Sequence record: OQ973471.1
Length of the DNA: 64,000 bases
Source of the DNA: Escherichia phage AV101
Reading direction: 5' to 3' (one strand)
Positions 9,154 through 56,558 of the stretch are shown here, piece by piece (positions within the stretch are counted from its first letter, which is position 1; every line of letters begins with the position of its first letter). The translations under genes were made by a program, and so were the position numbers. Below the pieces are notes generated by a model that was not told the origin of the DNA, did no database searches, and saw only the letters and a program-made list of their open reading frames with translations.

Positions 9154-9495
9154 ATGAAACTCAATAAGATTCTTCTGGTGTGCGCTCTGGCTTTCTCTAC
9201 CACTGCGTGCTCCACCCTTCTGGACGTTGCGTCTACTGTAGACCTTGACGCGCCGACGTTCACCAATGAGCAGGCTGTGTCCAAGATGGAAGACACCATT
9301 AAGGCGCATGCGGCGTTGGATAACGCCACCCCAGGTCCGCTCCAAACTGTCTGCAACTATGACGATTCCATCCAGGAAGACGAAACTTACCACTGCATCA
9401 CCTACGTGAAGCAGGCCTCCGTCGTTCTGTATGCAGATTGTACCGAAGAACAGTGTGTTGCTACAGGCTACGATAAAGTTGAGGAAGACAAATGA
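9154..9495 (+). CDS. Small lipoprotein (putative)
   Basis: MKLNKILLVCALAFSTTACS is a signal peptide with a lipobox-like Cys; AGGTGA RBS. Start placed at the ATG at 9154. Confidence 0.5.
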   Translation: MKLNKILLVCALAFSTTACSTLLDVASTVDLDAPTFTNEQAVSKMEDTIKAHAALDNATPGPLQTVCNYDDSIQEDETYHCITYVKQASVVLYADCTEEQCVATGYDKVEEDK

Positions 9496-10271
9496 ACAAC
9501 CTGGTTTGTATCTATGATATGAAATCAAAGGTCGGTGGCCTGTATCGCGTTCTCGTGGATGTTGACCTGACGTTGGTCGACAGCCTCTCCCCTTGGGTGC
9601 AGTGGTTCAACGAAGAGAACATCGCCGCCGCTGCTATCGCTACGGGGGAACATAAGTCATACCAGTTCCAGCCGATTACCAAAGAGTGTTATATGTCCCA
9701 TGCTGGCGACCTGGCTATTCTGATGCGTGAACGTGCGCATCCGGCGTGGCTATACCATGAAGTCCAATTGGGGGTGCACAAACAACGTGTGCCAAGCGGT
9801 AACGATCCTATGGACTGGTGGCGTCGCCCTGACTTGTACGCCAAGATGAACCCGCTCCCCGGCGCTTACGAGTTCCTGGTAAATCTGAAGGATATCTTGC
9901 TTGAAGATTTCGACAATGTTGAATTCGTTGCGGTGTCGAAGTGCGAGCCGGAACACGAGCGCAGCAAGCGCCAGTTTGTCTACGACAAGTTCCCTGGTAT
10001 CTTCAACGGGTTTGTCAGCACCGACGAAAAGCATCTGCTGGCAGGCGATGTCCTGATTGATGACAATCCGAAGTATGTCGAGCCGTGCGGTCTGAACAAC
10101 ATCTTTGTCATCTTTGTTCCTCAGGGCAATTATGAAAAACTGGATCTTTCGAACTCGGAAGATATGCTTTATATTAAACCAGTAGAAGGTCAGAATCACT
10201 TCGACTTCCTGAATTACAATATTGTTGAAGTGGTTAACCGCCTGATTAGTCATTATCAATACGTCCGATAG
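9492..10271 (+). CDS. HAD-superfamily phosphatase, possibly a 5'(3')-deoxyribonucleotidase
   Basis: HAD motif I VDVDLTLVD (DxDxT) and motif IV VLIDDNP; start overlaps the upstream stop (ATGA). Confidence 0.5.
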   Translation: MNNLVCIYDMKSKVGGLYRVLVDVDLTLVDSLSPWVQWFNEENIAAAAIATGEHKSYQFQPITKECYMSHAGDLAILMRERAHPAWLYHEVQLGVHKQRVPSGNDPMDWWRRPDLYAKMNPLPGAYEFLVNLKDILLEDFDNVEFVAVSKCEPEHERSKRQFVYDKFPGIFNGFVSTDEKHLLAGDVLIDDNPKYVEPCGLNNIFVIFVPQGNYEKLDLSNSEDMLYIKPVEGQNHFDFLNYNIVEVVNRLISHYQYVR

Positions 10272-10280
10272 GAGGACATC

Positions 10281-10586
10281 GTGCAAGATCAGAATAAGTT
10301 CGGGGAAATCCCCGACGAGCGTTTCGGTGATAGCGACATGGATGGCGTGATTAACCATGTGAACAACTTCATTCGCCAGCAGGAGACTCCGACTCCTATC
10401 GGCGCAGCCAAGGCTCTTCATGATGTACTGGTGAAGATCGGCCAGCGCTCTGAAGCGGATGAAATCTTCTATAACTTCGACGACCAGTATAAAGTGAAGT
10501 TTGAAGAGAATGGCCGCCCACAGGTTGCTGTGTTCTGGGCACCTTGGCTGGGCGGCGTGAGCTGGCGTATTGAGGATGCTGTGTAA
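10281..10586 (+). CDS. Hypothetical protein
   Basis: GTG start with AGGAGG RBS; 101 aa. Confidence 0.45.
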   Translation: MQDQNKFGEIPDERFGDSDMDGVINHVNNFIRQQETPTPIGAAKALHDVLVKIGQRSEADEIFYNFDDQYKVKFEENGRPQVAVFWAPWLGGVSWRIEDAV

Positions 10587-11272
10587 TGCTGTCGCTCTAC
10601 CTGATCACGAATCTCGTCAATCATAAATTCTATATCGGTGTCACCTCAGAACCGGATAGGCGGTTGGCTGAGCATAAGTGTGGTCAGGGGAGCATTGCAT
10701 TACAACGAGCGTTCAAGAAATACGGTGAAGACCAGTTCAAGTTTGAAGTTCTGTTCCGAGGGAAAGATTCGGTTATCCTTCAGATAGAGTCTGAACTGGT
10801 CTGCCAGGAGATCCTTGACTCTGGGTGGTGCTACAACATGGTCGTCGGGGGTGGGAAGCCTCCATTGGCCACGCCTAATTCATCTGCAAAGAGTGCTGCA
10901 ACCCGCAAACGTTTGATCGCTGAAGGTAAGATTAAACCTCCACCAAGACTCACCCCTGAAGCACAAGCCAGAAAGGGTAAGATCATAAGCAAATTGATGT
11001 CAGAAGGGAAGATCCCCAAACCACCAAGACCTTCCTCTGAATCTCAAACGCGTGGAGGGGAAACTAGGAAGAGGCTGCATGCTCTTGGCCTGATAGACAT
11101 TGGTCCTGGCCGCGATGAAACGATTTACAAATGGCAGCACAAAGATGGTCGCATTGTTGAGTTAAGAAGATGCGATATGGAACTTCAATATGGCCTCCCT
11201 TCCGGTAATATAACGAATCTCTTGAAAGGTAGGGCTAAAACATGTCTCGGTTGGAGAATATTAAATGGCTAA
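10586..11272 (+). CDS. GIY-YIG homing endonuclease (Seg-like)
   Basis: N-terminal LYLITNLVNHKFYIGVT...RRLAEHK GIY-YIG core; C-terminal tandem basic repeats KIKPPPRLTPEAQ / KIPKPPRPSSESQ; TAATG overlap with the upstream gene. Confidence 0.65.
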   Translation: MLSLYLITNLVNHKFYIGVTSEPDRRLAEHKCGQGSIALQRAFKKYGEDQFKFEVLFRGKDSVILQIESELVCQEILDSGWCYNMVVGGGKPPLATPNSSAKSAATRKRLIAEGKIKPPPRLTPEAQARKGKIISKLMSEGKIPKPPRPSSESQTRGGETRKRLHALGLIDIGPGRDETIYKWQHKDGRIVELRRCDMELQYGLPSGNITNLLKGRAKTCLGWRILNG

Positions 11273-12182
11273 AATAATTGTAGTGAAAGGCACCTCGGCC
11301 ACGGGCAAGGGTACGAGAGTGGTTCAGTTCATCGAATGGCTCCGTACGAAGCTGGAGCCTACCGAACTGACCTACACAGTTGGTGACAAGACTCGCCCGT
11401 TTGGCTTGAAGTTCGGAGAGCTGAAGTTAATCTTCGTTGGACAGTACACCGTGTCTAACAAATCCGGCCTGGCTTCCTGGACTTCAATGGATGCAATCCA
11501 TGCTGCTACAGGCTCAGGCGATATTGCTCGTGATCTAATCAAGTGCTGGTTGGTTCAGGGATACACTCTGGTGTGCGAGGGTGAACCCCTCATGCTGTCG
11601 GACAAATGGCGTCCTGAATGGATGTTCAAGAACTATCCGATTGAATCATTGGCGCTGCTGTACTTTGCGTACCCCGACCGCTATCAGTACGATGCTCGTA
11701 TCCGTGGTCGCTCTGGTAAAGAAGCAGGGAACTCCGGCTGGTCGCGCAACGAATCTTACTCCAAGGAGTTTGAGAAGTCGAAGGCCGAAATGCTGGCGCT
11801 GGGCTTCACTGTGGCTGTTGATGATTACAGCGGACAGGATATCCTGTATAAATCACCGAATGTCAACACCCAGGAGTTCCTGACCAGCCAGCAGTCAGAG
11901 TTGGCGGTACTACCGTTCGACGCCCCGCTTTGGGTGGTGGGTAACGCGATTTGTCATCAGATACGGTCCGAACTGCGTGAAGTTAACATGGACACCAAAG
12001 ACTTCTACGCCTACTGTGAAACCAATCCGATGACCCGTGAGGTCGGCGGTGAGGATCCTTTGGCGCACAGAGTCCCTGAGAAGCCGCAGAAGGCATCCAA
12101 AACTAAAACCAAGGCGAGCGCCCAGCCAGAAGCAACGAAGGCAGCGTCGCGCTCTCTCCTTGACCTGATGAAGAAGGGGTGA
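11265..12182 (+). CDS. P-loop nucleotide/nucleoside kinase-like protein
   Basis: N-terminal IIVVKGTSATGKGT is an NMP-kinase-type P-loop (GxxxxGKGT); 305 aa; overlaps neighbours at both ends. Confidence 0.45.
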   Translation: MAKIIVVKGTSATGKGTRVVQFIEWLRTKLEPTELTYTVGDKTRPFGLKFGELKLIFVGQYTVSNKSGLASWTSMDAIHAATGSGDIARDLIKCWLVQGYTLVCEGEPLMLSDKWRPEWMFKNYPIESLALLYFAYPDRYQYDARIRGRSGKEAGNSGWSRNESYSKEFEKSKAEMLALGFTVAVDDYSGQDILYKSPNVNTQEFLTSQQSELAVLPFDAPLWVVGNAICHQIRSELREVNMDTKDFYAYCETNPMTREVGGEDPLAHRVPEKPQKASKTKTKASAQPEATKAASRSLLDLMKKG

Positions 12183-12184
12183 TC

Positions 12185-12382
12185 ATGAAACGGTTGTCTA
12201 ATTATCTGTTGTTCATCGGTCTGATTATGGCAGCTATTTCAATGTGCGTTGGCCTGGCGTATCATTTCACTTCTCTGGATTTAACGACCTCAGAGAAGTT
12301 GAATGTGACTGTGATGTACTGTATTGGCGCGGTGATGTCTATCGGCGCTGCTGGTTACAAAATATTCAAGGAACCAAAATGA
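12185..12382 (+). CDS. Small membrane protein
   Basis: 66 aa with two hydrophobic helices; ATG at 12185 with AAGGGG RBS. Confidence 0.4.
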   Translation: MKRLSNYLLFIGLIMAAISMCVGLAYHFTSLDLTTSEKLNVTVMYCIGAVMSIGAAGYKIFKEPK

Positions 12383-12756
12383 AAATTCAAATCCCTCGCG
12401 ATGCTGTAGCTATTGCGATTGACTACACCGGAAACGCCAAGCACATTACTGCCGTGCGCCTGATTCCTGAAAAGAACTGCGTCATCCCTCAGTTCCAGCT
12501 GAATGCCAATCCGTCGTCCAAAGACTTCGGCAAGTGGTTACAGGCTGCTCCGTTCCGTACCCAGACGAATGCTCAGATGTTCATCTCGGGTAAGACCCAC
12601 ACTGCAGCCCGTCTGTGGTTCGTGACCGCTGACCGTCGCTTTGTCGATATGTGGGAACGTCCGATGGGGTTCGTGAAGCCGGAAGATATTCAGCTGGCTC
12701 CTGAGCCTGAAGCTGTGGCTCCTGAAGAGGAAGCGAAAGATGCATCATTTATCTAA
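12379..12756 (+). CDS. Hypothetical protein
   Basis: ATG at 12379 overlaps the upstream stop (ATGA); 125 aa. Confidence 0.4.
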   Translation: MKIQIPRDAVAIAIDYTGNAKHITAVRLIPEKNCVIPQFQLNANPSSKDFGKWLQAAPFRTQTNAQMFISGKTHTAARLWFVTADRRFVDMWERPMGFVKPEDIQLAPEPEAVAPEEEAKDASFI

Positions 12757-13975
12757 AATGCCGACGGGCTATACGCCTCCGACTGAATGGAAGTACCCGA
12801 TTGACCTATCTGTTGACTACCGTAAACCTGAGAATCGCATGTACCTGCTCAAGGCTTGGGTGGAGGCGCTGTCCTATACAGAAGAGCACAACCAACAGAT
12901 GCGTCTGATGGACTATGCGATTGAAGTCACTGAAGGCATCAGCCTCGAACAGAAAGTCGAGCGCAAGATCTGGATGGCATTCCTGTGGGGTTGTTGCTAT
13001 AACGCTGTCGGACCGTGGACGATCTACAGTGAGTTCCCTGTGCCGCCTCAGTCTAAGGAAGAGATGCAGCGCTTCTCAGACTGGTACAACCTGAACTTTG
13101 AACGCATGCGATTCGATACCGACTGTCGCTACCGCAAGTCCAAGATGATTCCGTGTGTTCAGTCCTATATTGACTGGCTGGCTGGTCGTACTCAATATGA
13201 CGCTTTCCGTGGGATGCTGGTGTGCATCGATAAGACAGAACAATTCACCCAGCTGTGGGACACGGCGATGTCCTGGAAATACTTCGGTCGCCTGAGCGCC
13301 TGGAACTTCCTGGAAGCCCTGAACATGGTCTTCGGGAACGAATACACCATTGACGTCCCTGGCTTCATGCTGCGTGATCGTGATGGAAGCGAGTCCAACC
13401 GTAATGGCGCGGCGTTCTTGTCTAACCGTGACGATTGGGTGACTAAACACGGGAAGAAAAAGATCAACGGTTGCCCTATCACGGATGAAGAGTGTGACAT
13501 CCTTGAGGCCGACCTTGAGCAGGCGTTCCAGGATTGTGTGGCTGAGTTCGGGCACCTGACGTTCATCAACCGCCTGAACTTTGAAACCTCCGGTGCTTGT
13601 TGGCTGAAGAAATTCTTCCGACTGAAGAATACCCGTTACATCGGGTGGGACGCAGAGCGTACATGGGATGAGATCGACTACATGGAACGCGTCTGGCCTG
13701 AATACTCCTGCGCAGCGCTCTGGGAAGCCCGTTCGCTCTGGCTGCCAGATACCCTGTTGTGCGAAAAGGCTCCTGCAGGGCACGTTCCAGGCGTCCAGAA
13801 GTGGAAGATGCCTGTGTTCTTTGAGACTGGTGTTCCTCTGCATATCTGGCACCTGCAAAAGGGTACGCGCTGGGAACCATCCGAGGTATGTACGAACCTG
13901 AAGATGCCTGTGCGCAAGGTTGAGGACAAGTCGAAGTCCAGCAGCGTCAACCTCATGGCACTCTTGAAACGCTGA
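12740..13975 (+). CDS. Hypothetical protein; candidate base-modification enzyme by context only
   Basis: 411-aa ORF translationally coupled downstream of the P-loop kinase gene; no motif recognised by eye. Confidence 0.4.
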   Translation: MHHLSKMPTGYTPPTEWKYPIDLSVDYRKPENRMYLLKAWVEALSYTEEHNQQMRLMDYAIEVTEGISLEQKVERKIWMAFLWGCCYNAVGPWTIYSEFPVPPQSKEEMQRFSDWYNLNFERMRFDTDCRYRKSKMIPCVQSYIDWLAGRTQYDAFRGMLVCIDKTEQFTQLWDTAMSWKYFGRLSAWNFLEALNMVFGNEYTIDVPGFMLRDRDGSESNRNGAAFLSNRDDWVTKHGKKKINGCPITDEECDILEADLEQAFQDCVAEFGHLTFINRLNFETSGACWLKKFFRLKNTRYIGWDAERTWDEIDYMERVWPEYSCAALWEARSLWLPDTLLCEKAPAGHVPGVQKWKMPVFFETGVPLHIWHLQKGTRWEPSEVCTNLKMPVRKVEDKSKSSSVNLMALLKR

Positions 13976-14011: not shown

Positions 14012-14179
14012 ATGTTACAAGATCTGCTGGTTTATGCGCTTCCTGGCGCGGTTGTCGGCTTCATTGCTGGTGCTCTGGTCTTCCGTAAACACGCGCAAGA
14101 CGGTGAAGTGATTGTTCAGAAGGGTAAAGATATCCTGGAACAAATCGAAGCCAAACTGGACGAGCTGAAGAAAAAGTAA
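14012..14179 (+). CDS. Small membrane protein (55 aa)
   Basis: Hand-translated MLQDLLVYALPGAVVGFIAGALVFRK...; below the ORF-track cutoff; its GAGGA RBS lies inside the upstream hairpin. Confidence 0.4.
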   Translation: MLQDLLVYALPGAVVGFIAGALVFRKHAQDGEVIVQKGKDILEQIEAKLDELKKK

Positions 14180-14207
14180 TCTGACTGGGGTTGCTTCCTT
14201 CAATAAA

Positions 14208-14248
14208 GGGGAATGGGTTATTATTAGCCCGTTCCCCTTTCTTTTTGC
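14208..14248 (+). terminator. Rho-independent terminator with embedded TATTAT
   Basis: Stem GGGGAATGGG/CCCGTTCCCC, loop TTATTATTAG, then TTTCTTTTT; preceded by TTCAATAAA at 14199. Confidence 0.65.
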
Positions 14249-16041: not shown

Positions 16042-16611
16042 ATGTCTCAATCTAAGGGTATCGCAACAGGTTGGATAGTTGGTTTGGCTTTGCTGGGTAT
16101 AGTGATTCTCGGCATCAGTACAGTCATCAGCTACTTCAACGACTTCAACCGCACTGAGCAGCAGGTCAAGAAGTTCAACAAAGACTCCGAGAACTACCTG
16201 AGCAACTACACGCTCAAAGTTCAGGAGACGGCGCAGATTCCTGACATGTATAAAGACGGCCTGAAGGAAGTGATCAAAGGCACGTTCGAAGGGCGTTATG
16301 GCGCTGATGGTTCCAAGGCCGTCATGCAGTGGATCCAGGAGCAGAATATTCAGTTCGATTCCAGCTTGTACAAAGAGATCCAGGTGGTGATCAGTTCTGG
16401 GCGTGATGAATTCCGCATCAGCCAGACCAAGAAGCTGGATATCTGCACAATATACGAAACCAAGCTGGCTCAGTTCCCTGGTTCGTTAATTGCTGGTATG
16501 TTTGGCTACCCGCGCATCGATCTTGACAAAACCTGTCAGGTGGTGAGTGATACCCGTACCCAAGCCGCGTTCGACGCTGGTATTCAGAAACCGATTAACT
16601 TCAAAGGCTGA
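16042..16611 (+). CDS. LemA-family membrane protein (putative)
   Basis: N-terminal transmembrane helix followed by a region resembling LemA (NDFNRTEQQVKKFNKD...); AAGAGGAAG RBS. Confidence 0.45.
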   Translation: MSQSKGIATGWIVGLALLGIVILGISTVISYFNDFNRTEQQVKKFNKDSENYLSNYTLKVQETAQIPDMYKDGLKEVIKGTFEGRYGADGSKAVMQWIQEQNIQFDSSLYKEIQVVISSGRDEFRISQTKKLDICTIYETKLAQFPGSLIAGMFGYPRIDLDKTCQVVSDTRTQAAFDAGIQKPINFKG

Positions 16612-29223: not shown

Positions 29224-30555
29224 ATGGTTGCCAAGAGCATTACTGTAACGGACTTCGTCAACACTGACCATAAACAGTTTTCTGTGGTCAACAGCATCCG
29301 TCAAATCCCTCAGCTGATTGACAGCCTCAAGCCAAGCCAGCGCAAGATCCTTTTCGCTGCTCTTGAGTACAACAAGGAGGAGATTGTTGACCGCCTTGGT
29401 ATGTTCGCCGCCGCTCGCACCAACTACAAGTCTGGTGGTGAGAACATGAGCGGCACTATCGTGAACATGGCTCAGGGGTTCCCAGGCACGAACAACATCC
29501 CGTACTTTGACCGCGATGGCCAGTTTGGTTCTATCATGGGGCGTGATGCTTCATCTGCCCGATACATATCCGTCGCTGTATCTGACGTTATCCGCAAGAT
29601 CTTCCGCAAGGAGGATGAGGGTATCTTGGAATACAACTACCTTGGTGAAGAAAGGCTGGAGCCGAAGTTCTTTCTGCCCATCCTACCCATGTTCCTGGTG
29701 AATGGGATCAATGGTATCGGCACCGGATATTCCACCGACACCCCGTGTCATTGCGTTAAGTCCGTGCTCAGTGCCCTGAGAGCGCTTCTCCGTGGCGAAG
29801 ACCCGAAAGACTTAAAACCGTACTGGAACGGCTTCAAAGGAGAGACAGGCTATACTGAGGAAGGAAGAGCATACAGTCGCGGTATCTTCCGTCGCGTCAA
29901 TGCCACCACCCTGCATATCACCGAAGTCCCAGTGGGTTGGTTCGCCAAAACCTATGAGACCAAGGTGTTGTTGCCTCTGTACAAGGCTGGTATCCTCACC
30001 GAGTACGCCAACGACACGACGGAAGATGGCTGGGATATCACGGTTGTGTTTAAGCGCGGCGAACTCTCTAAGCTGAGTGACGAGCAGGTTGAGCAGATGT
30101 TCAAGCTGTATTCAGCCACCAAGCCTGTTTGGACAGCATGGGATGAAGACGGTGTCATTCATCGTTATTCTGGTTGGCGGGACATGTTGCTGCCGTTCTT
30201 CAATTATCGCCTGTCACGGTACGAAGACCGTCGCCAGTATCTGTTGAAGGACATGGCAGACAGGATCCGCAAGCTGGGTGACCGGGCGGTGTTCATTGAA
30301 TGGGCGACGCGTGTTGATCTCCGCCAAAAGATTGACGTGCTGAAGTCTCTGTTCATGCAGGACTACCCGGACTTTGGTGGTGATCTTGACGAGTTGTTCA
30401 AGATGCCTCTGTCGTCTATTACTCTGGACGCCCGTGAGCGCCTACTCAAGCAGATTGAGAACCTTGAAGCACAACATAAGGAATTAAGTAAGAAAGAGGA
30501 CATCGATCTTTACACTGAAGACCTTGATGACCTTGAAAAGGCTCTTGACCTTTAA
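29224..30555 (+). CDS. DNA topoisomerase II medium subunit (GyrA-like; T4 gp52-like)
   Basis: LKPSQRKILFAAL matches the GyrA-type active-site region; GGGAGG RBS. Start could be the GTG at 29215 or the ATG at 29224. Confidence 0.8.
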   Translation: MVAKSITVTDFVNTDHKQFSVVNSIRQIPQLIDSLKPSQRKILFAALEYNKEEIVDRLGMFAAARTNYKSGGENMSGTIVNMAQGFPGTNNIPYFDRDGQFGSIMGRDASSARYISVAVSDVIRKIFRKEDEGILEYNYLGEERLEPKFFLPILPMFLVNGINGIGTGYSTDTPCHCVKSVLSALRALLRGEDPKDLKPYWNGFKGETGYTEEGRAYSRGIFRRVNATTLHITEVPVGWFAKTYETKVLLPLYKAGILTEYANDTTEDGWDITVVFKRGELSKLSDEQVEQMFKLYSATKPVWTAWDEDGVIHRYSGWRDMLLPFFNYRLSRYEDRRQYLLKDMADRIRKLGDRAVFIEWATRVDLRQKIDVLKSLFMQDYPDFGGDLDELFKMPLSSITLDARERLLKQIENLEAQHKELSKKEDIDLYTEDLDDLEKALDL

Positions 30556-30594
30556 CATAGGAGGGTTCGCCCTCCTCACCTGGAGGGTTGTGCT

Positions 30595-43495: not shown

Positions 43496-43729
43496 TCACA
43501 CCTCTTTGTGATTCTTCATCTTGCGGACAGTGCCCACAAACCCAAGATCCTTCCCGCAATGGGTGCAGATAGCATGGCAAGCACGGTTCTCACGATAGGT
43601 GCTGTGTTTGCAGCGCCATTGCTTGAACGCCGAACGGGCAACTGGGATCACGGCGATCAAGAAGACGATGCCGGATATCTGAAGTTCAACCAAGAACTTC
43701 GCCCACCAGAAACTTATGTACTCACCCAT
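43496..43729 (-). CDS. Small membrane protein with C-terminal CxxC
   Basis: Start placed at internal Met (MGEYISFWW...) to limit overlap with the ligase gene. Confidence 0.3.
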   Translation of the reverse strand: MGEYISFWWAKFLVELQISGIVFLIAVIPVARSAFKQWRCKHSTYRENRACHAICTHCGKDLGFVGTVRKMKNHKEV

Positions 43730-45152
43730 TACTCTTCTCCAACAGGAATGCGATGTTTTCGATATACGCTTTCTGTATCGCATAGACTTCATCCAGTGTG
43801 TTGGCCACTTTCTTGTCAATGCGGACTTCTACAAGGCGAGGTAGGAACAAAGACTTCATCGCATCATCTGTCTTATCCTGTACGCCATTGGAGAGCACTG
43901 CGGCGATCTTGCCAATGTAGTCGCCCTGGTTCTCCCACATATGGCGTCTCAGCTCATCTGAGATCCCTGATACACCAACAACAAGCAGGCCGTCGGAAGT
44001 TTTACAAATCAGTGAGCCAAAAGTCTTGGCGTGTTTACCCTTCTTGTCGGCCTCGTTAAAGCCCACGATTTCAAGGTCACACTCAACCTCCATCTTCAGC
44101 TTCAGACCTTCAGAAGAAGTACCATCTTCCCACGGCATGTCTGCGGCCTTACATATCGTGCCTTCTTCTTTGCGAGCCAGCGCGTCTTTGAAGTGGTCGA
44201 CGGCTTCGGCAAATGAGTGAACAACACGAGTTTCCTGAACCTGAACCAGACCGTCGTCTTCATCAAACAGTTGCTGGATGATATCGAAGCGGCGCTCATA
44301 CGGGGTGTCCACGCGCTGGGCGTTGAACCATTGTTCATATGGCACAACATCCCACACCCGGTAGATCACCCGATAACGATCTTCTAGGGGTTCTCCTGTC
44401 TGAATCACGCTGTTGAGTTTACCGTTACCGACAGCACGAGGCAGGATGGTATTCGACTTGAGGTCAACAACGAGAAGTTCACCATGGAACACACTCTCAC
44501 CAATCCCCGCATCGTAGATCAGGTCTTTGAACACCAGTGAAAGGTTATCAACCGAACCACCTGCGATAAGGGAACCGGAGCGAGAGCGAATCTCAGGCTC
44601 TTTATTGTAACGACAGATGATGTTGGCGAACATACCGTCTGACTTCAGCTGGCTGTAGACACCACGCTTGAAGTCCATCTTCTTCAGCAGGTCAATCGTC
44701 ATGTTGTCATAACGATGATATGGAAGGATGTTGATCAGGCGTCCAGTACCTCCGGCGGCGTTGAATGCAGCGTTGATGCCCTTCTCAGCGATACCCGCCT
44801 TGATATCACGGTCTAGGATCATCTGAATGAGTTCGTGGTATTGGGGATCCATCTTCAGGGCGACAGAGGCCAACAGGGCATCAGCCTTTTGGCCACCGAC
44901 AAGGCGCTGCGCCATCTGGTCGAGGACGTCATAGACTTCGCTGATGTCATCAGTCTTCTCACGGACGAGCATGCGAGGATACGCGCTGAGTTTCAACTCA
45001 GTCCGATAGAACGACATCATTGGGTCATAGACATACTGCAGGAAGTCTGCCAAGTCTGGGTTGTTCTTGAATGCTTCGGTCAGCACGGCTTTCTTCGCAT
45101 TGCTGCCTTTGGTTTCGCGAAGTCGGTGGACTGTTTCAAGGATAGGGATCAT
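43722..45152 (-). CDS. ATP-dependent DNA ligase (T4 gp30-like)
   Basis: Adenylation motif I KSDGMF, motif EGTICKA, 476 aa; GGAGA RBS. Confidence 0.8.
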   Translation of the reverse strand: MIPILETVHRLRETKGSNAKKAVLTEAFKNNPDLADFLQYVYDPMMSFYRTELKLSAYPRMLVREKTDDISEVYDVLDQMAQRLVGGQKADALLASVALKMDPQYHELIQMILDRDIKAGIAEKGINAAFNAAGGTGRLINILPYHRYDNMTIDLLKKMDFKRGVYSQLKSDGMFANIICRYNKEPEIRSRSGSLIAGGSVDNLSLVFKDLIYDAGIGESVFHGELLVVDLKSNTILPRAVGNGKLNSVIQTGEPLEDRYRVIYRVWDVVPYEQWFNAQRVDTPYERRFDIIQQLFDEDDGLVQVQETRVVHSFAEAVDHFKDALARKEEGTICKAADMPWEDGTSSEGLKLKMEVECDLEIVGFNEADKKGKHAKTFGSLICKTSDGLLVVGVSGISDELRRHMWENQGDYIGKIAAVLSNGVQDKTDDAMKSLFLPRLVEVRIDKKVANTLDEVYAIQKAYIENIAFLLEKSNG

Positions 45153-51586: not shown

Positions 51587-52140
51587 TAGAACTCCAGGGT
51601 CAGAGGGGTTTCTGCGGACTTATCGTAATCCGCGCCACCAGCAGCACGCAGGCGATTGCGATCGTTCTTGCGTTTGTGTGCCAGTATGTAAGTCTCAATG
51701 TCGATCTCCATATAAGAACACGCAGACGACAGGAAGAACATGAGAGTCTCAACGCAAGGATCGTTCATGAATTGCCCAAGGCGGTACGTAACATTGCGAT
51801 GCCCTACAACACCCAAAGCAGGTGGGGTGAATTCGCGATTACTAAGGACTTCAAATTCTTCTTCGATCTCACCTTTGGTGCGGTCCACAAGGATGAAGCA
51901 CAACATGAAGTGTACCACGTCCACCAGTTCATAAACTGCGTTCGTATGGTCAAACCCGATGTCGTTGCCATAGACCTTCCAGTCACGGGTGGTTTCATCA
52001 AGGAACTCTGCCCACTCACGATAGATAGAGTTGATGACTGCGTTCTGACTCCATACATTCTTCCACTCTTCCCCAAAGTAGGCCACGTTAGTGGCCTTTT
52101 GGAGTTCGAGCAGGCTTTTGATATGCCCTGCTGTGATCAT
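51586..52140 (-). CDS. All-alpha NTP pyrophosphohydrolase (MazG/dUTPase-2/gp56 dCTPase-like)
   Basis: E-x-x-E / E-x-x-D pattern (IYREWAEFLDETTRDW; ELVDVVHF). Confidence 0.45.
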   Translation of the reverse strand: MITAGHIKSLLELQKATNVAYFGEEWKNVWSQNAVINSIYREWAEFLDETTRDWKVYGNDIGFDHTNAVYELVDVVHFMLCFILVDRTKGEIEEEFEVLSNREFTPPALGVVGHRNVTYRLGQFMNDPCVETLMFFLSSACSYMEIDIETYILAHKRKNDRNRLRAAGGADYDKSAETPLTLEF

Positions 52141-52706
52141 TTACGTTCTCCGTAGAATTTAACGAACGGCTCCCAACCATCAAATGGATTGAGGAATTCG
52201 TAGTCCACTTTCATTTGGTCAATGAAAGCCTCTATATCGTCCTCTATGATACCAGCACGGTCGGCCTTTGAAATACGGGTGATAGGACATTTCGTACTCA
52301 GCGCCCATTCATATTCCTGAGGGGTACGCAGATCGCTCACGATATAATGGACGTGGGGGTTCTGCTCTACCAGAGGAAGCTGGAAACGCTTGAAGAATGC
52401 CAGGAACAGATCGGGTTGTACGTAACGCAAGCCCGTATCGCTGCCTAGATGAAGCCAGATCTGCCGGGGAGTTAAGCCCTTGGGGTTATCAGGGTGCACG
52501 TAAGGAACGTCCTTCACGGCATCCTCTACCTCCGCTGGCAGCCATGGATAGATGAAGTTGGCAACCCGGCGCAGTTCATCTGAGAACGAAAGGCGCTGGA
52601 TGTCCATATCACCCTGTAGTTGGTGATAGCTGATGAGGGACTCCAAACAGAAGTCCTTGCCGGAACGCTTGCGCCCCGTAAAGAATTCAAGATTTGGGTA
52701 CATCAT
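52137..52706 (-). CDS. Deoxynucleoside monophosphate kinase (T4 gp1-like)
   Basis: P-loop FFTGRKRSGKDF compared with T4 gp1 GVKRSGKDT; second block HYIVSDLR. Confidence 0.55.
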   Translation of the reverse strand: MMYPNLEFFTGRKRSGKDFCLESLISYHQLQGDMDIQRLSFSDELRRVANFIYPWLPAEVEDAVKDVPYVHPDNPKGLTPRQIWLHLGSDTGLRYVQPDLFLAFFKRFQLPLVEQNPHVHYIVSDLRTPQEYEWALSTKCPITRISKADRAGIIEDDIEAFIDQMKVDYEFLNPFDGWEPFVKFYGERK

Positions 52707-53749
52707 ACTACACCTTCCAGGAACTTAGGATCAACGATCTTGCGGTCAACCGGAGAATGGGTGAGCGCGGTGTTCAATCCATGATCCTGAATCAGGTCCA
52801 GGTTAATGAGCTTGTTATTCAATTTGCAGTGCAGGCAGTATGCCATCTGCACAATCAGACCGCGATCCGCATCATACTCCTTCAGGAAGGCAACAACAGT
52901 TTCCCAAGGACTACCGAAGTCACAATGAACAAGCACGCCAGTGAACAGATCGCGGATATGGTTCTGGTTGGTCACGTTCGTGAAGTGGATCATGGAGTTG
53001 ATGAACCCAGCTTCTACTTTGGTGTCCTTCGTGATCTTGCCCAGCTGCTTCTGGCTGACTTCATTGTTGTAGTAATGAAGATTGTTGGAGAAGAGCTTGT
53101 ACTGGCCGACGTCAACATCCAACACCCGAGCAATCACTTCCTGAAGAATAGAGAACTCAATGAAGTTGATTGAACTCATACCCCACAGAACATCCTGTGA
53201 GCGATTGATAACCGTCAGGTTCAGGCGACCTTCAACGATGGCGAACAACAGAGCCAGGTTACACACCATGTCCTTGGTCTTTGCTTCGCCACTCTCACTG
53301 AACTTCGCCAGACCAGCATCTGAATCCAGAGCCGGATCATAGATGGTGAGGTACGCCTGGCGAGTGTTTGGATTCTTGCGCAGGCGGTTGATGACGCTAT
53401 CCAGCTGGCCATGGGCGTACAGACGCGGACCATAAGCGGCTCGCCATGTGTGGCCGTTGTCGGAAAAGTTGGCGGCGCGGGGCAACACGCGGGACAGGAA
53501 GCGAACGTCATCGCGCCCGGACAGAACCCAGAAGGTCTCGCCGATGGCGGCGATAGCCGATGAGTTACGACCTTCAACGGATAGCCAGCGGTCACGGATG
53601 TCGGCGACGGTTATGGTCACGCCATCAAGGAAGCGGGTGCTATCAGTATTGATTTCAGCATTACCAGGATCAGATTCGATCCCGAATTCACGGATAGCCA
53701 AGACAGCCTGTTTCAGCATGTCATTGTTGTTTATTGCTTTGATTTCCAT
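52703..53749 (-). CDS. Thymidylate-synthase-family enzyme, candidate dUMP hydroxymethylase
   Basis: TS-family blocks RQAYLTIYDP and MVCNLALLF...NRSQDVLWGMSSINF (catalytic Cys; Q-R-S-x-D; Asn near the TS uracil-specificity position). Confidence 0.6.
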   Translation of the reverse strand: MEIKAINNNDMLKQAVLAIREFGIESDPGNAEINTDSTRFLDGVTITVADIRDRWLSVEGRNSSAIAAIGETFWVLSGRDDVRFLSRVLPRAANFSDNGHTWRAAYGPRLYAHGQLDSVINRLRKNPNTRQAYLTIYDPALDSDAGLAKFSESGEAKTKDMVCNLALLFAIVEGRLNLTVINRSQDVLWGMSSINFIEFSILQEVIARVLDVDVGQYKLFSNNLHYYNNEVSQKQLGKITKDTKVEAGFINSMIHFTNVTNQNHIRDLFTGVLVHCDFGSPWETVVAFLKEYDADRGLIVQMAYCLHCKLNNKLINLDLIQDHGLNTALTHSPVDRKIVDPKFLEGVV

Positions 53750-54408
53750 CAGATACTCCCAAAATCACGACAGAGGAATGCCATCACAGCCTGGTCTACT
53801 GTTAGGCCGTGAGACTTCATCATACCCGCAGCCACCGTAGGGAACAAGTCTTTATGTCGTTGACGATGGTCATGAACTCTCTCCCACTTCTCGACCACCA
53901 GACTTTCATTGAAATCCACACCGCCGTTGCGTGATTTAACGCGGGTGATACACGTTTCAAGAGGAGTGTCCATAAAGAGCACAACCAATTCACGTGGTGG
54001 GCGTGTCAGGCGGGGGATCCAAGAACTCAATAATGTGGATGGAATGATACCTTCGAAAATCACATCATATTTCAAGTATTCTGGTTGGTCAGCAATAGAC
54101 AACGCGAACAACATCTGCTCAGTGTCCTTCAGGGAATCAACCCCCTTGGACTTCGACTTGTCATATTTACCGATACAGACCACGTTGAACGAAGGACAGA
54201 CAGTCAGCATGACCTTGCCGTTATGGGTCACGACATACGCCTGAGGATCCCTCTCCGCCAGCTGAGACGGCACAGTGGATTTACCGCTACCATTGGAGCC
54301 TTTGACGTAGTAGATTTGCCCTCGTGCTGGGTAGATCCCCTTTACGACGGGTGGTTTAAAGAATGTGTGGACGGGGCGCTTCATCAGCCCCTTCAGGGAG
54401 TAGGACAT
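53749..54408 (-). CDS. P-loop kinase (polynucleotide-kinase-like), candidate DNA hydroxymethyl-dU kinase
   Basis: Walker A GSNGSGKST; 219 aa; start overlaps the stop of the TS-family gene. Confidence 0.45.
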   Translation of the reverse strand: MSYSLKGLMKRPVHTFFKPPVVKGIYPARGQIYYVKGSNGSGKSTVPSQLAERDPQAYVVTHNGKVMLTVCPSFNVVCIGKYDKSKSKGVDSLKDTEQMLFALSIADQPEYLKYDVIFEGIIPSTLLSSWIPRLTRPPRELVVLFMDTPLETCITRVKSRNGGVDFNESLVVEKWERVHDHRQRHKDLFPTVAAGMMKSHGLTVDQAVMAFLCRDFGSI

Positions 54409-55512: not shown

Positions 55513-55794
55513 TCAATATAGAAAAACCATTTCCGGTGGCCAACAATTTGTTAGCTCGACTTTTGCGAACCGTGGTTGGCAGTACGCATCAACCGACTCA
55601 TCAAACAGACAGTGTTCTACATTTGCAATCATCAGATCATCATCCACCACTTCAACAGAATGGACAATGATCTTGTGGTCATACGTCAGGCAACCGTCTA
55701 AATGCATGTTGTCAGCGCGGAGGTGTTGCATGATGAAATACTCTATGATCGACTCAAGGACAGTCGTCAGCTTCAGATAACGTTTCATACACAC
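55513..55794 (-). CDS. Hypothetical protein
   Basis: 93-aa ORF. Confidence 0.35.
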   Translation of the reverse strand: MCMKRYLKLTTVLESIIEYFIMQHLRADNMHLDGCLTYDHKIIVHSVEVVDDDLMIANVEHCLFDESVDAYCQPRFAKVELTNCWPPEMVFLY

Positions 55795-55808
55795 CTCTCA
55801 CAGTGGAG

Positions 55809-56558
55809 TTATTTGGACAGATAGAAGTTTGGAACTTCAGGGAAATGCTCTGGTAGATATCCCACCAGAACATCCTGTTTCACCTTCCCTTCGATATCTT
55901 CGCGGATACGACGAATCACATCTTCCTGTTGTTCTGCTGCCATCACTTCTTCCATGGCTGAGTACAAGTTTTCTAGAATGACACCTACGTAGTTGTGGAT
56001 GGCACGACAGGAGTTCTGATCATACTCCATATCCGGATGAATCGCCAGGTCGACCTGATCACGCCCTACCAGCAGATGTCCAGACACCAGATTTATCGGG
56101 TATTTGAATACTTCACTAGATTTGACAGCAACTCCGTCGGCTTGCTCCAGCAGGAATTCGGTTTCAGAGAAGCGTTCAAGTAGTTCCGATGGGAATACCA
56201 TATCGAGATTCTGACGCTTGCGACCAAAGAAGTATAGACAATGCGCCAGCTTCAGGCAAGCCTCTGTCGCCATCTTCATATGCGCTTTGGCATGTTCATA
56301 TCCAGCGATCACATCACGGACATAATCGTACAGGTCGGCATGACCAAAACGAATGTCTTCGCTGAACTGAATTGCGGTTTCGCTGTCTTCTTTCAGACCC
56401 AGCACGTCGAAGATATTGTGTTCACGGACAGATCTGCCGTTTCGATCGAAACCCAGAACGCAACCGACTTCGAATCCACTCTTTTCAAAATTTGGGAGTT
56501 TCATATCAAGGCGAGCTGGGGTAAACTCTAACCCGAACATACGATAAATTTGTGACAT
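55809..56558 (-). CDS. Hypothetical protein
   Basis: 249-aa ORF. Confidence 0.45.
   Translation of the reverse strand: MSQIYRMFGLEFTPARLDMKLPNFEKSGFEVGCVLGFDRNGRSVREHNIFDVLGLKEDSETAIQFSEDIRFGHADLYDYVRDVIAGYEHAKAHMKMATEACLKLAHCLYFFGRKRQNLDMVFPSELLERFSETEFLLEQADGVAVKSSEVFKYPINLVSGHLLVGRDQVDLAIHPDMEYDQNSCRAIHNYVGVILENLYSAMEEVMAAEQQEDVIRRIREDIEGKVKQDVLVGYLPEHFPEVPNFYLSK

Follow-up and report, generated by a model that had tools for sequence, protein, structure and literature searches.

Kinase 2 and the ADDT transferase of Escherichia phage AV101, and polymerase-like tails on thymidine hypermodification enzymes

The stretch of DNA analysed here (the window) comprises 64,000 nucleotides (nt) of Escherichia phage AV101 (record OQ973471.1), an Ackermannviridae coliphage, and contains a gene for a 305-amino-acid (aa) P-loop protein, kinase 2 (HMUD2), followed by one for a 411-aa transferase (ADDT). 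These two enzymes very probably act one directly after the other, on replicated DNA, in the thymidine hypermodification by which Ackermannviridae make 5-(2-aminoethoxy)methyl-deoxyuridine (5-NeOmdU). Their family membership, orthology to proteins characterised in Salmonella phage ViI (gp243 and gp247), catalytic motifs, fold and conserved gene adjacency were all established in the present work; the module itself is already known, and is ordinary for this phage family. The new element is a peptide resembling the C-terminal tail of the phage DNA polymerase, present on these and other modification enzymes, which suggests that they may ride the replication clamp.

Kinase 2, the ADDT transferase and the 5-NeOmdU pathway

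The two open reading frames (ORFs) were found exactly where the first-pass annotation of this DNA had placed them (the 305-aa ORF with its GTSATGKGT motif at 11265–12182, and the 411-aa ORF at 12740–13975). The 305-aa protein matched the Pfam family HMUD2 with E = 4.8e-157 (522.2 bits; cut-off 25), its residues 1–304 covering positions 1–298 of the 298 in the profile, and was 85% identical over its full length to ViI gp243 (YP_004327565). Five residues of its Walker A P-loop (G9, S11, G14, K15 and G16) were invariant in 36 of 36 HMUD2 members. The P-loop, the position downstream of the polymerase gene and the type of C-terminal tail are all as in gp243, the stretch most diverged from that protein being residues ∼195–245; unlike ViI, the window has a gene for a GIY-YIG homing endonuclease directly upstream of the kinase. 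Purified ViI gp243 and gp67 each make the phosphorylated base 5-PmdU on DNA containing 5-hydroxymethyl-deoxyuridine (5-hmdU) (PMC8989533). By orthology with gp243, the window kinase is predicted to phosphorylate 5-hmdU within DNA in an ATP-dependent manner. The P-loop had earlier been described as being of the nucleoside monophosphate (NMP) kinase type; HMUD2, however, acts on DNA and not on free NMPs (PMC8989533).

The 411-aa protein, previously thought to have no recognisable motif, matched the Pfam family ADDT (the current name of aGPT-Pplase clade 2) with E = 4.5e-60 and 203.7 bits (cut-off 26.2), residues 49–292 aligning with profile positions 2–228 of 232, and contains a catalytic E-T-x3-C motif at residues 282–287. 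It was 90% identical to ViI gp247 (YP_004327568), which is also 411 aa long; the positions that differ (43 of 411) cluster at residues 60–70, 105–115 and 150–170, and all the cysteines, the E-T-x3-C motif and the tail of gp247 are retained. The first-pass proposal of a DNA-modification kinase paired with an aGPT-Pplase-type transferase was therefore correct (PF18747 plus PF18724; 85% and 90% identity to gp243 and gp247). Of the pyrophosphorylase/transferase activity then suggested, the transferase part stands, while the base on which such enzymes act is monophosphorylated and not pyrophosphorylated (PMC8989533). Purified gp247 transfers L-serine via its side-chain oxygen to 5-PmdU DNA, and changing the conserved Cys or the neighbouring Glu to Ala abolishes activity (PMC8989533). 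Given its 90% identity to gp247, the window transferase would be expected to move L-serine onto 5-PmdU DNA as well.

Residues E282, T283 and C287 were invariant in alignments of 29 and 30 homologues (39–90% identity), while C341 was not. Hhalign paired NFETSgACWLKK with EVETI-LCKWKS of PaMx11 gp46, equating E282, T283 and C287 with E243, T244 and C247 of that enzyme, and the catalytic Cys of both proteins falls at Pfam profile position ∼223. In the crystal structure of PaMx11 gp46, a metal ion is held by Glu243 and Thr244, and Cys247 has been proposed to act as the nucleophile (PMC11472151). C341 was also considered as the catalytic Cys, and rejected: its pairing in a four-sequence MAFFT alignment was an artefact of a long insert, corrected by the 30-sequence alignment, hhalign and the profile coordinates. 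The AlphaFold (AF2) model of the transferase (predicted local distance difference test score, pLDDT, 90.1) had PaMx11 gp46 (8z2n) as its first-ranked and only meaningful Foldseek match in the PDB (probability 1.00; target-normalised template modelling score, TM, 0.58; E = 0.077), with AGOG glycosylase at rank 12. The all-helical fold of PaMx11 gp46, which resembles helix-hairpin-helix glycosylases, was thus recovered by model comparison, albeit with a modest E value.

The kinase and the transferase had been taken for a second modification module; they belong instead to a single pathway, already described, whose genes are dispersed. In this pathway, the thymidylate-synthase (TS)-like enzyme would provide 5-hm-dUMP, which the phage polymerase would put into DNA. 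With ATP, the HMUD2 kinase would phosphorylate the hydroxymethyl group of 5-hmdU in the DNA, generating 5-PmdU. ADDT would then flip the base out, and attack of Cys287 on C6 and departure of the phosphate would leave an exocyclic methylene, to which the side-chain hydroxyl of free L-serine would add, forming O-serinyl-thymidine (O-SerT). Finally, the pyridoxal phosphate (PLP)-dependent enzyme would decarboxylate this product to 5-NeOmdU. The TS-like protein, HMUD1 (kinase 1), HMUD2, ADDT and the PLP decarboxylase are all encoded in the window (5 of 5), at 75–92% identity to the ViI proteins (NC_015296). Lysates containing ViI gp67, gp160, gp226, gp243 and gp247 reconstitute 5-NeOmdU on 5-hmdU DNA (PMC5889632), gp226 decarboxylates the product of gp247 (PMC8989533), and measurements of 5-NeOmdU exist for the Kuttervirus phages ViI and CBA120 (per PMC11721090) and for the Taipeivirus phage phiHS2 (bioRxiv 10.64898/2026.05.19.726188). 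Taipeivirus-type transferases were ∼86% identical to that of the window. That the two kinases arose by tandem duplication was considered and rejected, the similarity between HMUD1 and HMUD2 being marginal (23% identity, E = 0.009).

The two genes also keep company across phages. A tblastn search of 50,697 phage records detected the transferase in 378 and the kinase in 349, and the counts by host genus were nearly identical (transferase/kinase: Salmonella 164/162, Vibrio 62/65, Klebsiella 45/45, Escherichia 28/28, Dickeya 19/19); the surplus of transferases was made up of 27 distant mycobacteriophage matches. The order HMUD2 then ADDT holds in all the lineages examined (the window, ViI, phiMAM1, Vibrio phage D528 and the metagenomic loci L010 and L013), the kinase-2/transferase junction being a 4-nt overlap in phiMAM1 and a 4-nt gap in D528, with the genes adjacent in L010 and L013. 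The TS-like gene accompanies the pair in the window, ViI, D528 and L013. The 411-aa protein thus showed no affiliation to an unrelated family, and co-occurrence with the TS-like gene, suggested beforehand as a check, held.

Several observations weigh against the assignment of the pair to the 5-NeOmdU pathway. BLASTP detected no similarity between the 411-aa protein and either M6 gp51 or PaMx11 gp46, and neither single-sequence nor profile searches against PDB sequences linked it to PaMx11 gp46. The hhalign (E = 0.024) and Foldseek scores were both weak, and what connects the protein to the solved structure is therefore the shared Pfam family together with the motifs and the rank in the fold search. 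The gp160-type HMUDK_hel (formerly aGPT-Pplase clade 1) gave no tblastn match in the window; in ViI its gene lies ∼50 kb from the kinase/transferase region, and synteny places the AV101 copy outside the window. In addition, the measurements of 5-NeOmdU all come from other phages, and a 10% divergence from gp247 could in principle alter the nucleophile. The transferase might then install something other than serine (e.g. a polyamine, or the glycine used by M6 gp51 and PaMx11 gp46), resulting in another hypermodified thymidine. Glycine, serine and putrescine are all known as nucleophiles within the ADDT family (PMC8989533, Table 1), and the differences from gp247 mentioned above leave some room for this. 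It was nevertheless judged very unlikely in view of the high identity to a serine enzyme, the lack of detectable pairwise similarity to the glycine enzymes, the 92% conservation of the gp226-type decarboxylase that processes O-SerT, and the presence of 5-NeOmdU in two further genera of the family. An ordinary nucleotide-pool kinase, acting on free NMPs and lying beside the transferase by coincidence, would agree with the label 'guanylate kinase' that the 305-aa protein carries in RefSeq and PHROG, and with guanylate kinases being the nearest PDB folds to its AF2 model (pLDDT 85.8; HMUD2 has no solved structure). These NMP-kinase folds are distant, however, and the matches weak (TM 0.3–0.45; 10–12% identity), while the protein is a full-length member of HMUD2 whose ViI orthologue phosphorylates 5-hmdU in DNA; moreover, a separate dNMP-kinase-like gene adjoins the TS-like gene. 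A pool kinase was considered extremely improbable, and the assignment of both proteins to the 5-NeOmdU pathway was retained.

Polymerase-like tails on the modification enzymes

The gene for the family-B DNA polymerase lies 2 kb upstream of the kinase. Its product aligned with RB69 gp43 (1clq) with E = 4.5e-109 as far as residue 900 of the 903, which puts its C-terminal tail at the position of the gp45-clamp-binding peptide of RB69 and T4. When this tail was used as a query against those of the 367 other six-frame ORFs of the window, the transferase ranked second and the kinase about sixth (median score 9; 99th percentile 21); first place went to a 71-aa Cys4 protein. A regular expression describing the tail matched near the C-terminus in 6 of the 796 ORFs of the complete ViI genome, namely the polymerase, gp243, gp247, gp160, the Cys4 protein and the tail-tube protein. 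The expression was written post hoc, after these tails had been seen, and the real test was therefore provided by other lineages. That the tails might be copies of a repeated DNA element was rejected because their codons differ and the similarity is at the peptide level.

In the kinase, the tail is preceded by a disordered linker rich in K, A, S, T and P (residues ∼265–294); pLDDT fell below 50 at residues 280–295 of the AF2 model, with a helix at 298–303. The model of the transferase behaved likewise (pLDDT <50 at residues 391–408, helix at 405–410). All of the full-length kinase-2 homologues retrieved (81 of 81) carried a tail of one of the observed classes, and the length of the linker varied among them, with the 285-aa variants lacking 20 linker residues while keeping the motif.

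The tails of the enzymes changed together with that of the polymerase. In Vibrio phage D528 the polymerase ends in ARKLW, kinase 2 in TKKLW, the transferase in TRKLW and the gp160-type HMUDK_hel in TKRLW. Just two further ORFs of this 157-kb genome have a terminal [KR][KR]L[WF]: a gp33-type late coactivator (PF16805), ending in TRKLF, whose counterpart in T4 is an established clamp binder, and a Cys4 protein similar to the 71-aa one of the window and encoded beside the ligase gene. In Vibrio phage YC the polymerase ends in ARRLF and kinase 2 in TNRLF. The endings in L013 are TSALW (polymerase), NDLW and SSLW (two kinase-2 paralogues), NALW (transferase) and NSLW (HMUDK_hel), and none of 15 neighbouring proteins ends in this way. 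In L010, a locus that does not include the polymerase, three enzymes end in NVFDIF, NVLDFFG and SILDLL, close to the SLDFLFG of T4. When 13 enzyme tails were compared with the polymerase tails of four lineages, the best match was that of the own lineage in all 13 cases, one of them a tie (naive binomial P = 1.5e-8, the tails not being fully independent). The tail is not a general feature of the ADDT family, a possibility that was rejected since it is absent in M6 and PaMx11, which have family-A polymerases, and in homologues on small siphovirus-like contigs.

In the PLP decarboxylase the motif is internal (SVSLAGLL, within the segment SKSVSLAGLLSG). Aligned with SKSVSLAGLLSG in the D528 homologue is KPKTRRLFGG, in which KTRRLF represents the motif in its D528 form. 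No tail is present on HMUD1 (gp67 type). The tail-bearing HMUDK_hel adjoins HMUD1 or is fused with it in M6 and in locus L014, and kinase 1 may thus be tethered through HMUDK_hel.

Other proteins with related endings were noted. The tail of the window Cys4 protein, a zinc-ribbon-like protein, ends in ATVNLLSLMRK and is the best polymerase-like tail in the window; its gene lies upstream of the DNA ligase gene, as do its counterparts in ViI (30355–30567) and D528 (55591–55890). The apparent D528 counterpart ends in KTKRLW, the type of the D528 polymerase. The protein had no Pfam or PADLOC match, and is a candidate clamp client or adaptor. The DNA ligase of the window, with a tail ending in AYIENIAFLLEKSNG, ranked third of 367 in the comparison with the polymerase tail. 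The tail-tube protein, ending in TSLLGLLKDVMGK, matched the regular expression in the window as well as in ViI, probably by chance. The observation on the internal motif of the PLP decarboxylase covers the window and locus L009 (742–1893). In L013 (8531–9988; proteins P0048, P0049 and P0052 listed) the two kinase-2 paralogues are in tandem, both with the xLW tail of the lineage. A separate group of ADDT homologues has a Cys-rich tail, CSPCDC(E/D)WGN, instead.

Because the tails co-vary with that of the polymerase and are absent from the transferases of phages with family-A polymerases, it is moderately probable that, in phages with a T4-like replisome, kinase 2, ADDT, the gp160-type HMUDK_hel (probably together with HMUD1) and the PLP decarboxylase, the last by way of an internal loop, are tethered to a gp45-type sliding clamp by mimics of the polymerase tail. 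The clamp-bound enzymes would form an assembly line modifying freshly replicated DNA. If true, this would explain modification coincident with replication, and may bear on the partial modification of thymidine and on the retention of two kinases. Clamp binding by these modification enzymes is not mentioned in the searchable literature: neither 'clamp' nor 'gp45' occurs in PMC5889632 or PMC8989533, and no paper there combines 'clamp-binding' with 'hypermodif'.

Clamp tethering has evidence against it. The ViI enzymes are active in vitro without a clamp (PMC8989533), and a claimed interaction between T4 alpha-glucosyltransferase and gp45 was not reproduced (bioRxiv 10.64898/2025.12.06.692756), although that negative result was obtained with C-terminal tags, which would mask any C-terminal docking peptide. 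The enteric motif (VNLLxMM plus basic residues) is aliphatic and basic and has none of the aromatics of T4 LDFLF; the enteric gp33-like coactivator (PF16805), an expected clamp binder, ends in ALKSKKLV, unlike the polymerase; and the regular expression also fits the tail-tube protein. All but the first of these observations also speak for an alternative in which the tails dock elsewhere (e.g. on the clamp loader, single-stranded DNA-binding protein, helicase or a scaffold of the replication compartment) or act as a targeting or degradation signal. This alternative was considered rather unlikely, though well short of negligible. The reference tail lies at the very C-terminus of the polymerase, aligned to within ≤3 residues of the end of RB69 gp43, where the clamp peptide is located; the D528 gp33 homologue ends as the D528 polymerase does; and T4 ligase binds gp45 through a motif recognised by a like similarity to the polymerase tail (PMC6212786). 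Docking on the sliding clamp that stays behind on newly replicated DNA was preferred as the most economical reading.

Gene layout and neighbouring genes

The features of the region are collected in Table 1. Bases 14000–38900 were ∼96% identical to Escherichia phages A221, PH4, PC3, LHE287 and ZQ1, and the kinase/transferase region had matches in 281 phage records, chiefly from Salmonella, Klebsiella, Escherichia and Dickeya phages. The pair is part of a ∼5-kb unit downstream of the polymerase gene that includes the nucleotidase gene, a DUF7254 gene, the homing endonuclease gene, kinase 2, two small ORFs and the transferase, and that is flanked by a promoter-like site and a strong terminator-like hairpin. 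A promoter scan of the region yielded 11 sites, compared to 12.6 expected in shuffled sequences, which is not above chance.

Table 1. Features of the window, with positions counted from its first nucleotide
Feature	Position	Strand	Basis or remarks
PLP-dependent decarboxylase, gp226 orthologue	2300–3493	+	92% to ViI gp226; Pfam PALP match weak
Internal motif SVSLAGLL of PLP decarboxylase	3158–3181	+	
Family-B DNA polymerase tail RRVNLLAMMQKKKG, reference motif	9047–9088 (gene 6092–9091)	+	RB69 gp43 alignment
Promoter-like site TTGATT-18-TATAAT	9088–9117	+	Consensus scan, 10/12 matches; directly after polymerase stop
NT5C-like 5'(3')-deoxyribonucleotidase	9492–10271	+	Pfam match
GIY-YIG homing endonuclease	10586–11272	+	Pfam GIY-YIG; phrog_19446, E 2.5e-104
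Kinase 2 (HMUD2), 305 aa, ViI gp243 orthologue	11265–12182	+	Pfam PF18747
Walker A P-loop GTSATGKGT, residues 9–17	11289–11315	+	Read from sequence
Kinase tail SRSLLDLMKKG, putative clamp-binding peptide	12147–12179	+	Polymerase-like
65-aa predicted membrane protein, ViI orf00244 counterpart	12185–12382	+	phrog_4514, E 2.9e-33; tblastn 34% to ViI
125-aa protein, ViI orf00245 counterpart	12379–12756	+	phrog_4163, E 1.8e-65; 59% to ViI
ADDT transferase, 411 aa, ViI gp247 orthologue	12740–13975	+	Pfam PF18724
Catalytic motif E282-T283-S-G-A-C287	13583–13600	+	Alignments, hhalign, Pfam profile
Transferase tail SSSVNLMALLKR (ends SSVNLMALLKR), putative clamp-binding peptide	13937–13972	+	Polymerase-like
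55-aa ORF	14012–14179		5' of terminator-like hairpin
Terminator-like hairpin, 16-bp stem then T run	14205–14240	+	End of unit
371-aa membrane protein, Cys-rich segment	14908–16023	+	phrog_2087; 'host lysis protein' label in ViI
189-aa protein	16042–16611	+	LemA annotation in phage RPN242
DNA ligase	43722–45152	-	
Cys4 zinc-ribbon-like protein, 71 aa	45860–46075	-	
dNMP-kinase-like gene	52137–52706		Adjoins TS-like gene
Thymidylate-synthase-like, presumed dUMP hydroxymethylase, ViI orf00066 orthologue	52703–53749	-	Thymidylat_synt, E 1.5e-15; 75% to ViI
5-hmdU DNA kinase 1 (HMUD1), gp67 orthologue	53749–54408	-	PF18748, E 1.6e-108; 88% to ViI gp67
Tail-tube protein	57379–58323	+	
gp33-like coactivator	59710–59952	-	PF16805

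The 65-aa gene starts with an ATG 2 nt past the kinase stop and is overlapped by the 125-aa gene via ATGA, while the last 17 nt of the 125-aa gene overlap the start of the 411-aa gene; the starts of the two small genes (12185 and 12379) were placed from the junction sequence and PHROG alignments. The translational coupling first proposed holds in so far as the genes are chained through overlaps with the small ORFs, with no direct coupling between the kinase and the 411-aa gene. Each of the four ORFs is a genuine gene, having matched a PHROG family (4 of 4; E values from 3e-33 to 3e-231) and having a syntenic orthologue in ViI. None of their products had a match in NCBIfam or PADLOC, nor did the 125-aa protein have one in Pfam. 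The 65-aa gene is missing between the kinase and ADDT genes in phiMAM1, D528, L010 and L013. As the kinase-2 and transferase genes adjoin in these four, the two small ORFs are an insertion particular to the enteric lineages.

The homing endonuclease gene, whose stop overlaps the kinase start by 8 nt, follows the DUF7254 gene and precedes kinase 2; neither ViI nor LHE287, the closest relative, has it at this position. Three phages (fGh-Ecl02, ZQ1 and LIMEstone1) encode an in-frame fusion of another GIY-YIG domain with a kinase-2 allele of 50% identity (532 aa; locus L006, 2528–4126), the last 41 codons of which are again ∼100% identical to the window, with the breakpoint near window position 12057. 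This suggests an allele exchange at kinase 2, driven by homing endonucleases, that spared the tail. A nucleotidase gene is found just 5' of kinase 2 in ViI, phiMAM1, D528 and L010 as well; its product may remove dTMP or further dNMPs from the nucleotide pool, favouring the use of 5-hm-dUTP. The genes for the 371-aa and 189-aa proteins both lie downstream of the unit that the hairpin closes.

Implications and comparison with known systems

The assignment corrects the records of two genes mostly listed as 'hypothetical protein' and 'guanylate kinase', and has little weight otherwise. It predicts that this coliphage would carry 5-NeOmdU DNA, resistant to many restriction enzymes. The tails provide a testable lead on how hypermodification might be coupled to replication, and clamp clients of uncultured phages could be catalogued by means of the motif. 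A single proposal in this vein had been made before, that T4 alpha-glucosyltransferase binds gp45; it is disputed (bioRxiv 10.64898/2025.12.06.692756), and the Ackermannviridae enzymes would be a cleaner case.

The window transferase has its Pfam family and fold in common with the glycine:DNA transferases PaMx11 gp46 (PUGT; 8z2n) and M6 gp51, and the alignment extends to the FG helix, an FMxxD motif and the three catalytic residues (Glu, Thr and Cys). Compared with these 292-aa siphovirus enzymes, it is longer by ∼48 residues at the N-terminus and, past the catalytic Cys, by a structured extension of ∼100 residues (293–385) followed by the flexible linker and the tail. PaMx11 gp46 and M6 gp51 use the amine of glycine as nucleophile; transferases of the window type would use the hydroxyl of serine.

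The tail of the RB69/T4 polymerase binds the gp45 clamp (PMC2988020, PMC6212786), and in T4 the clamp-binding motif is common to gp43, gp33 and gp55 and interchangeable among them (PMC2988020). The gp45-binding loop of T4 ligase, which is internal, was discovered through its motif resembling the polymerase tail (PMC6212786), and offers a parallel to the internal motif of the window PLP decarboxylase. The T4/RB69 clamp peptides (gp43 EKASLDFLFG, gp33 and gp55) consist of a hydrophobic C-terminal peptide on an unstructured linker of variable length, and the tails in the window are built alike. They differ in that the enteric motif is aliphatic/basic and that of T4 aromatic/acidic, and in that the carriers here are DNA base-modifying enzymes, putative clamp binders, and not replication or transcription factors. 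In eukaryotes, the interaction of DNMT1 with PCNA couples maintenance DNA methylation to replication. There too, a DNA-modifying enzyme is brought to new DNA by a clamp-interaction peptide; the enzymes and the chemistry are unrelated, and the likeness is one of analogy only.

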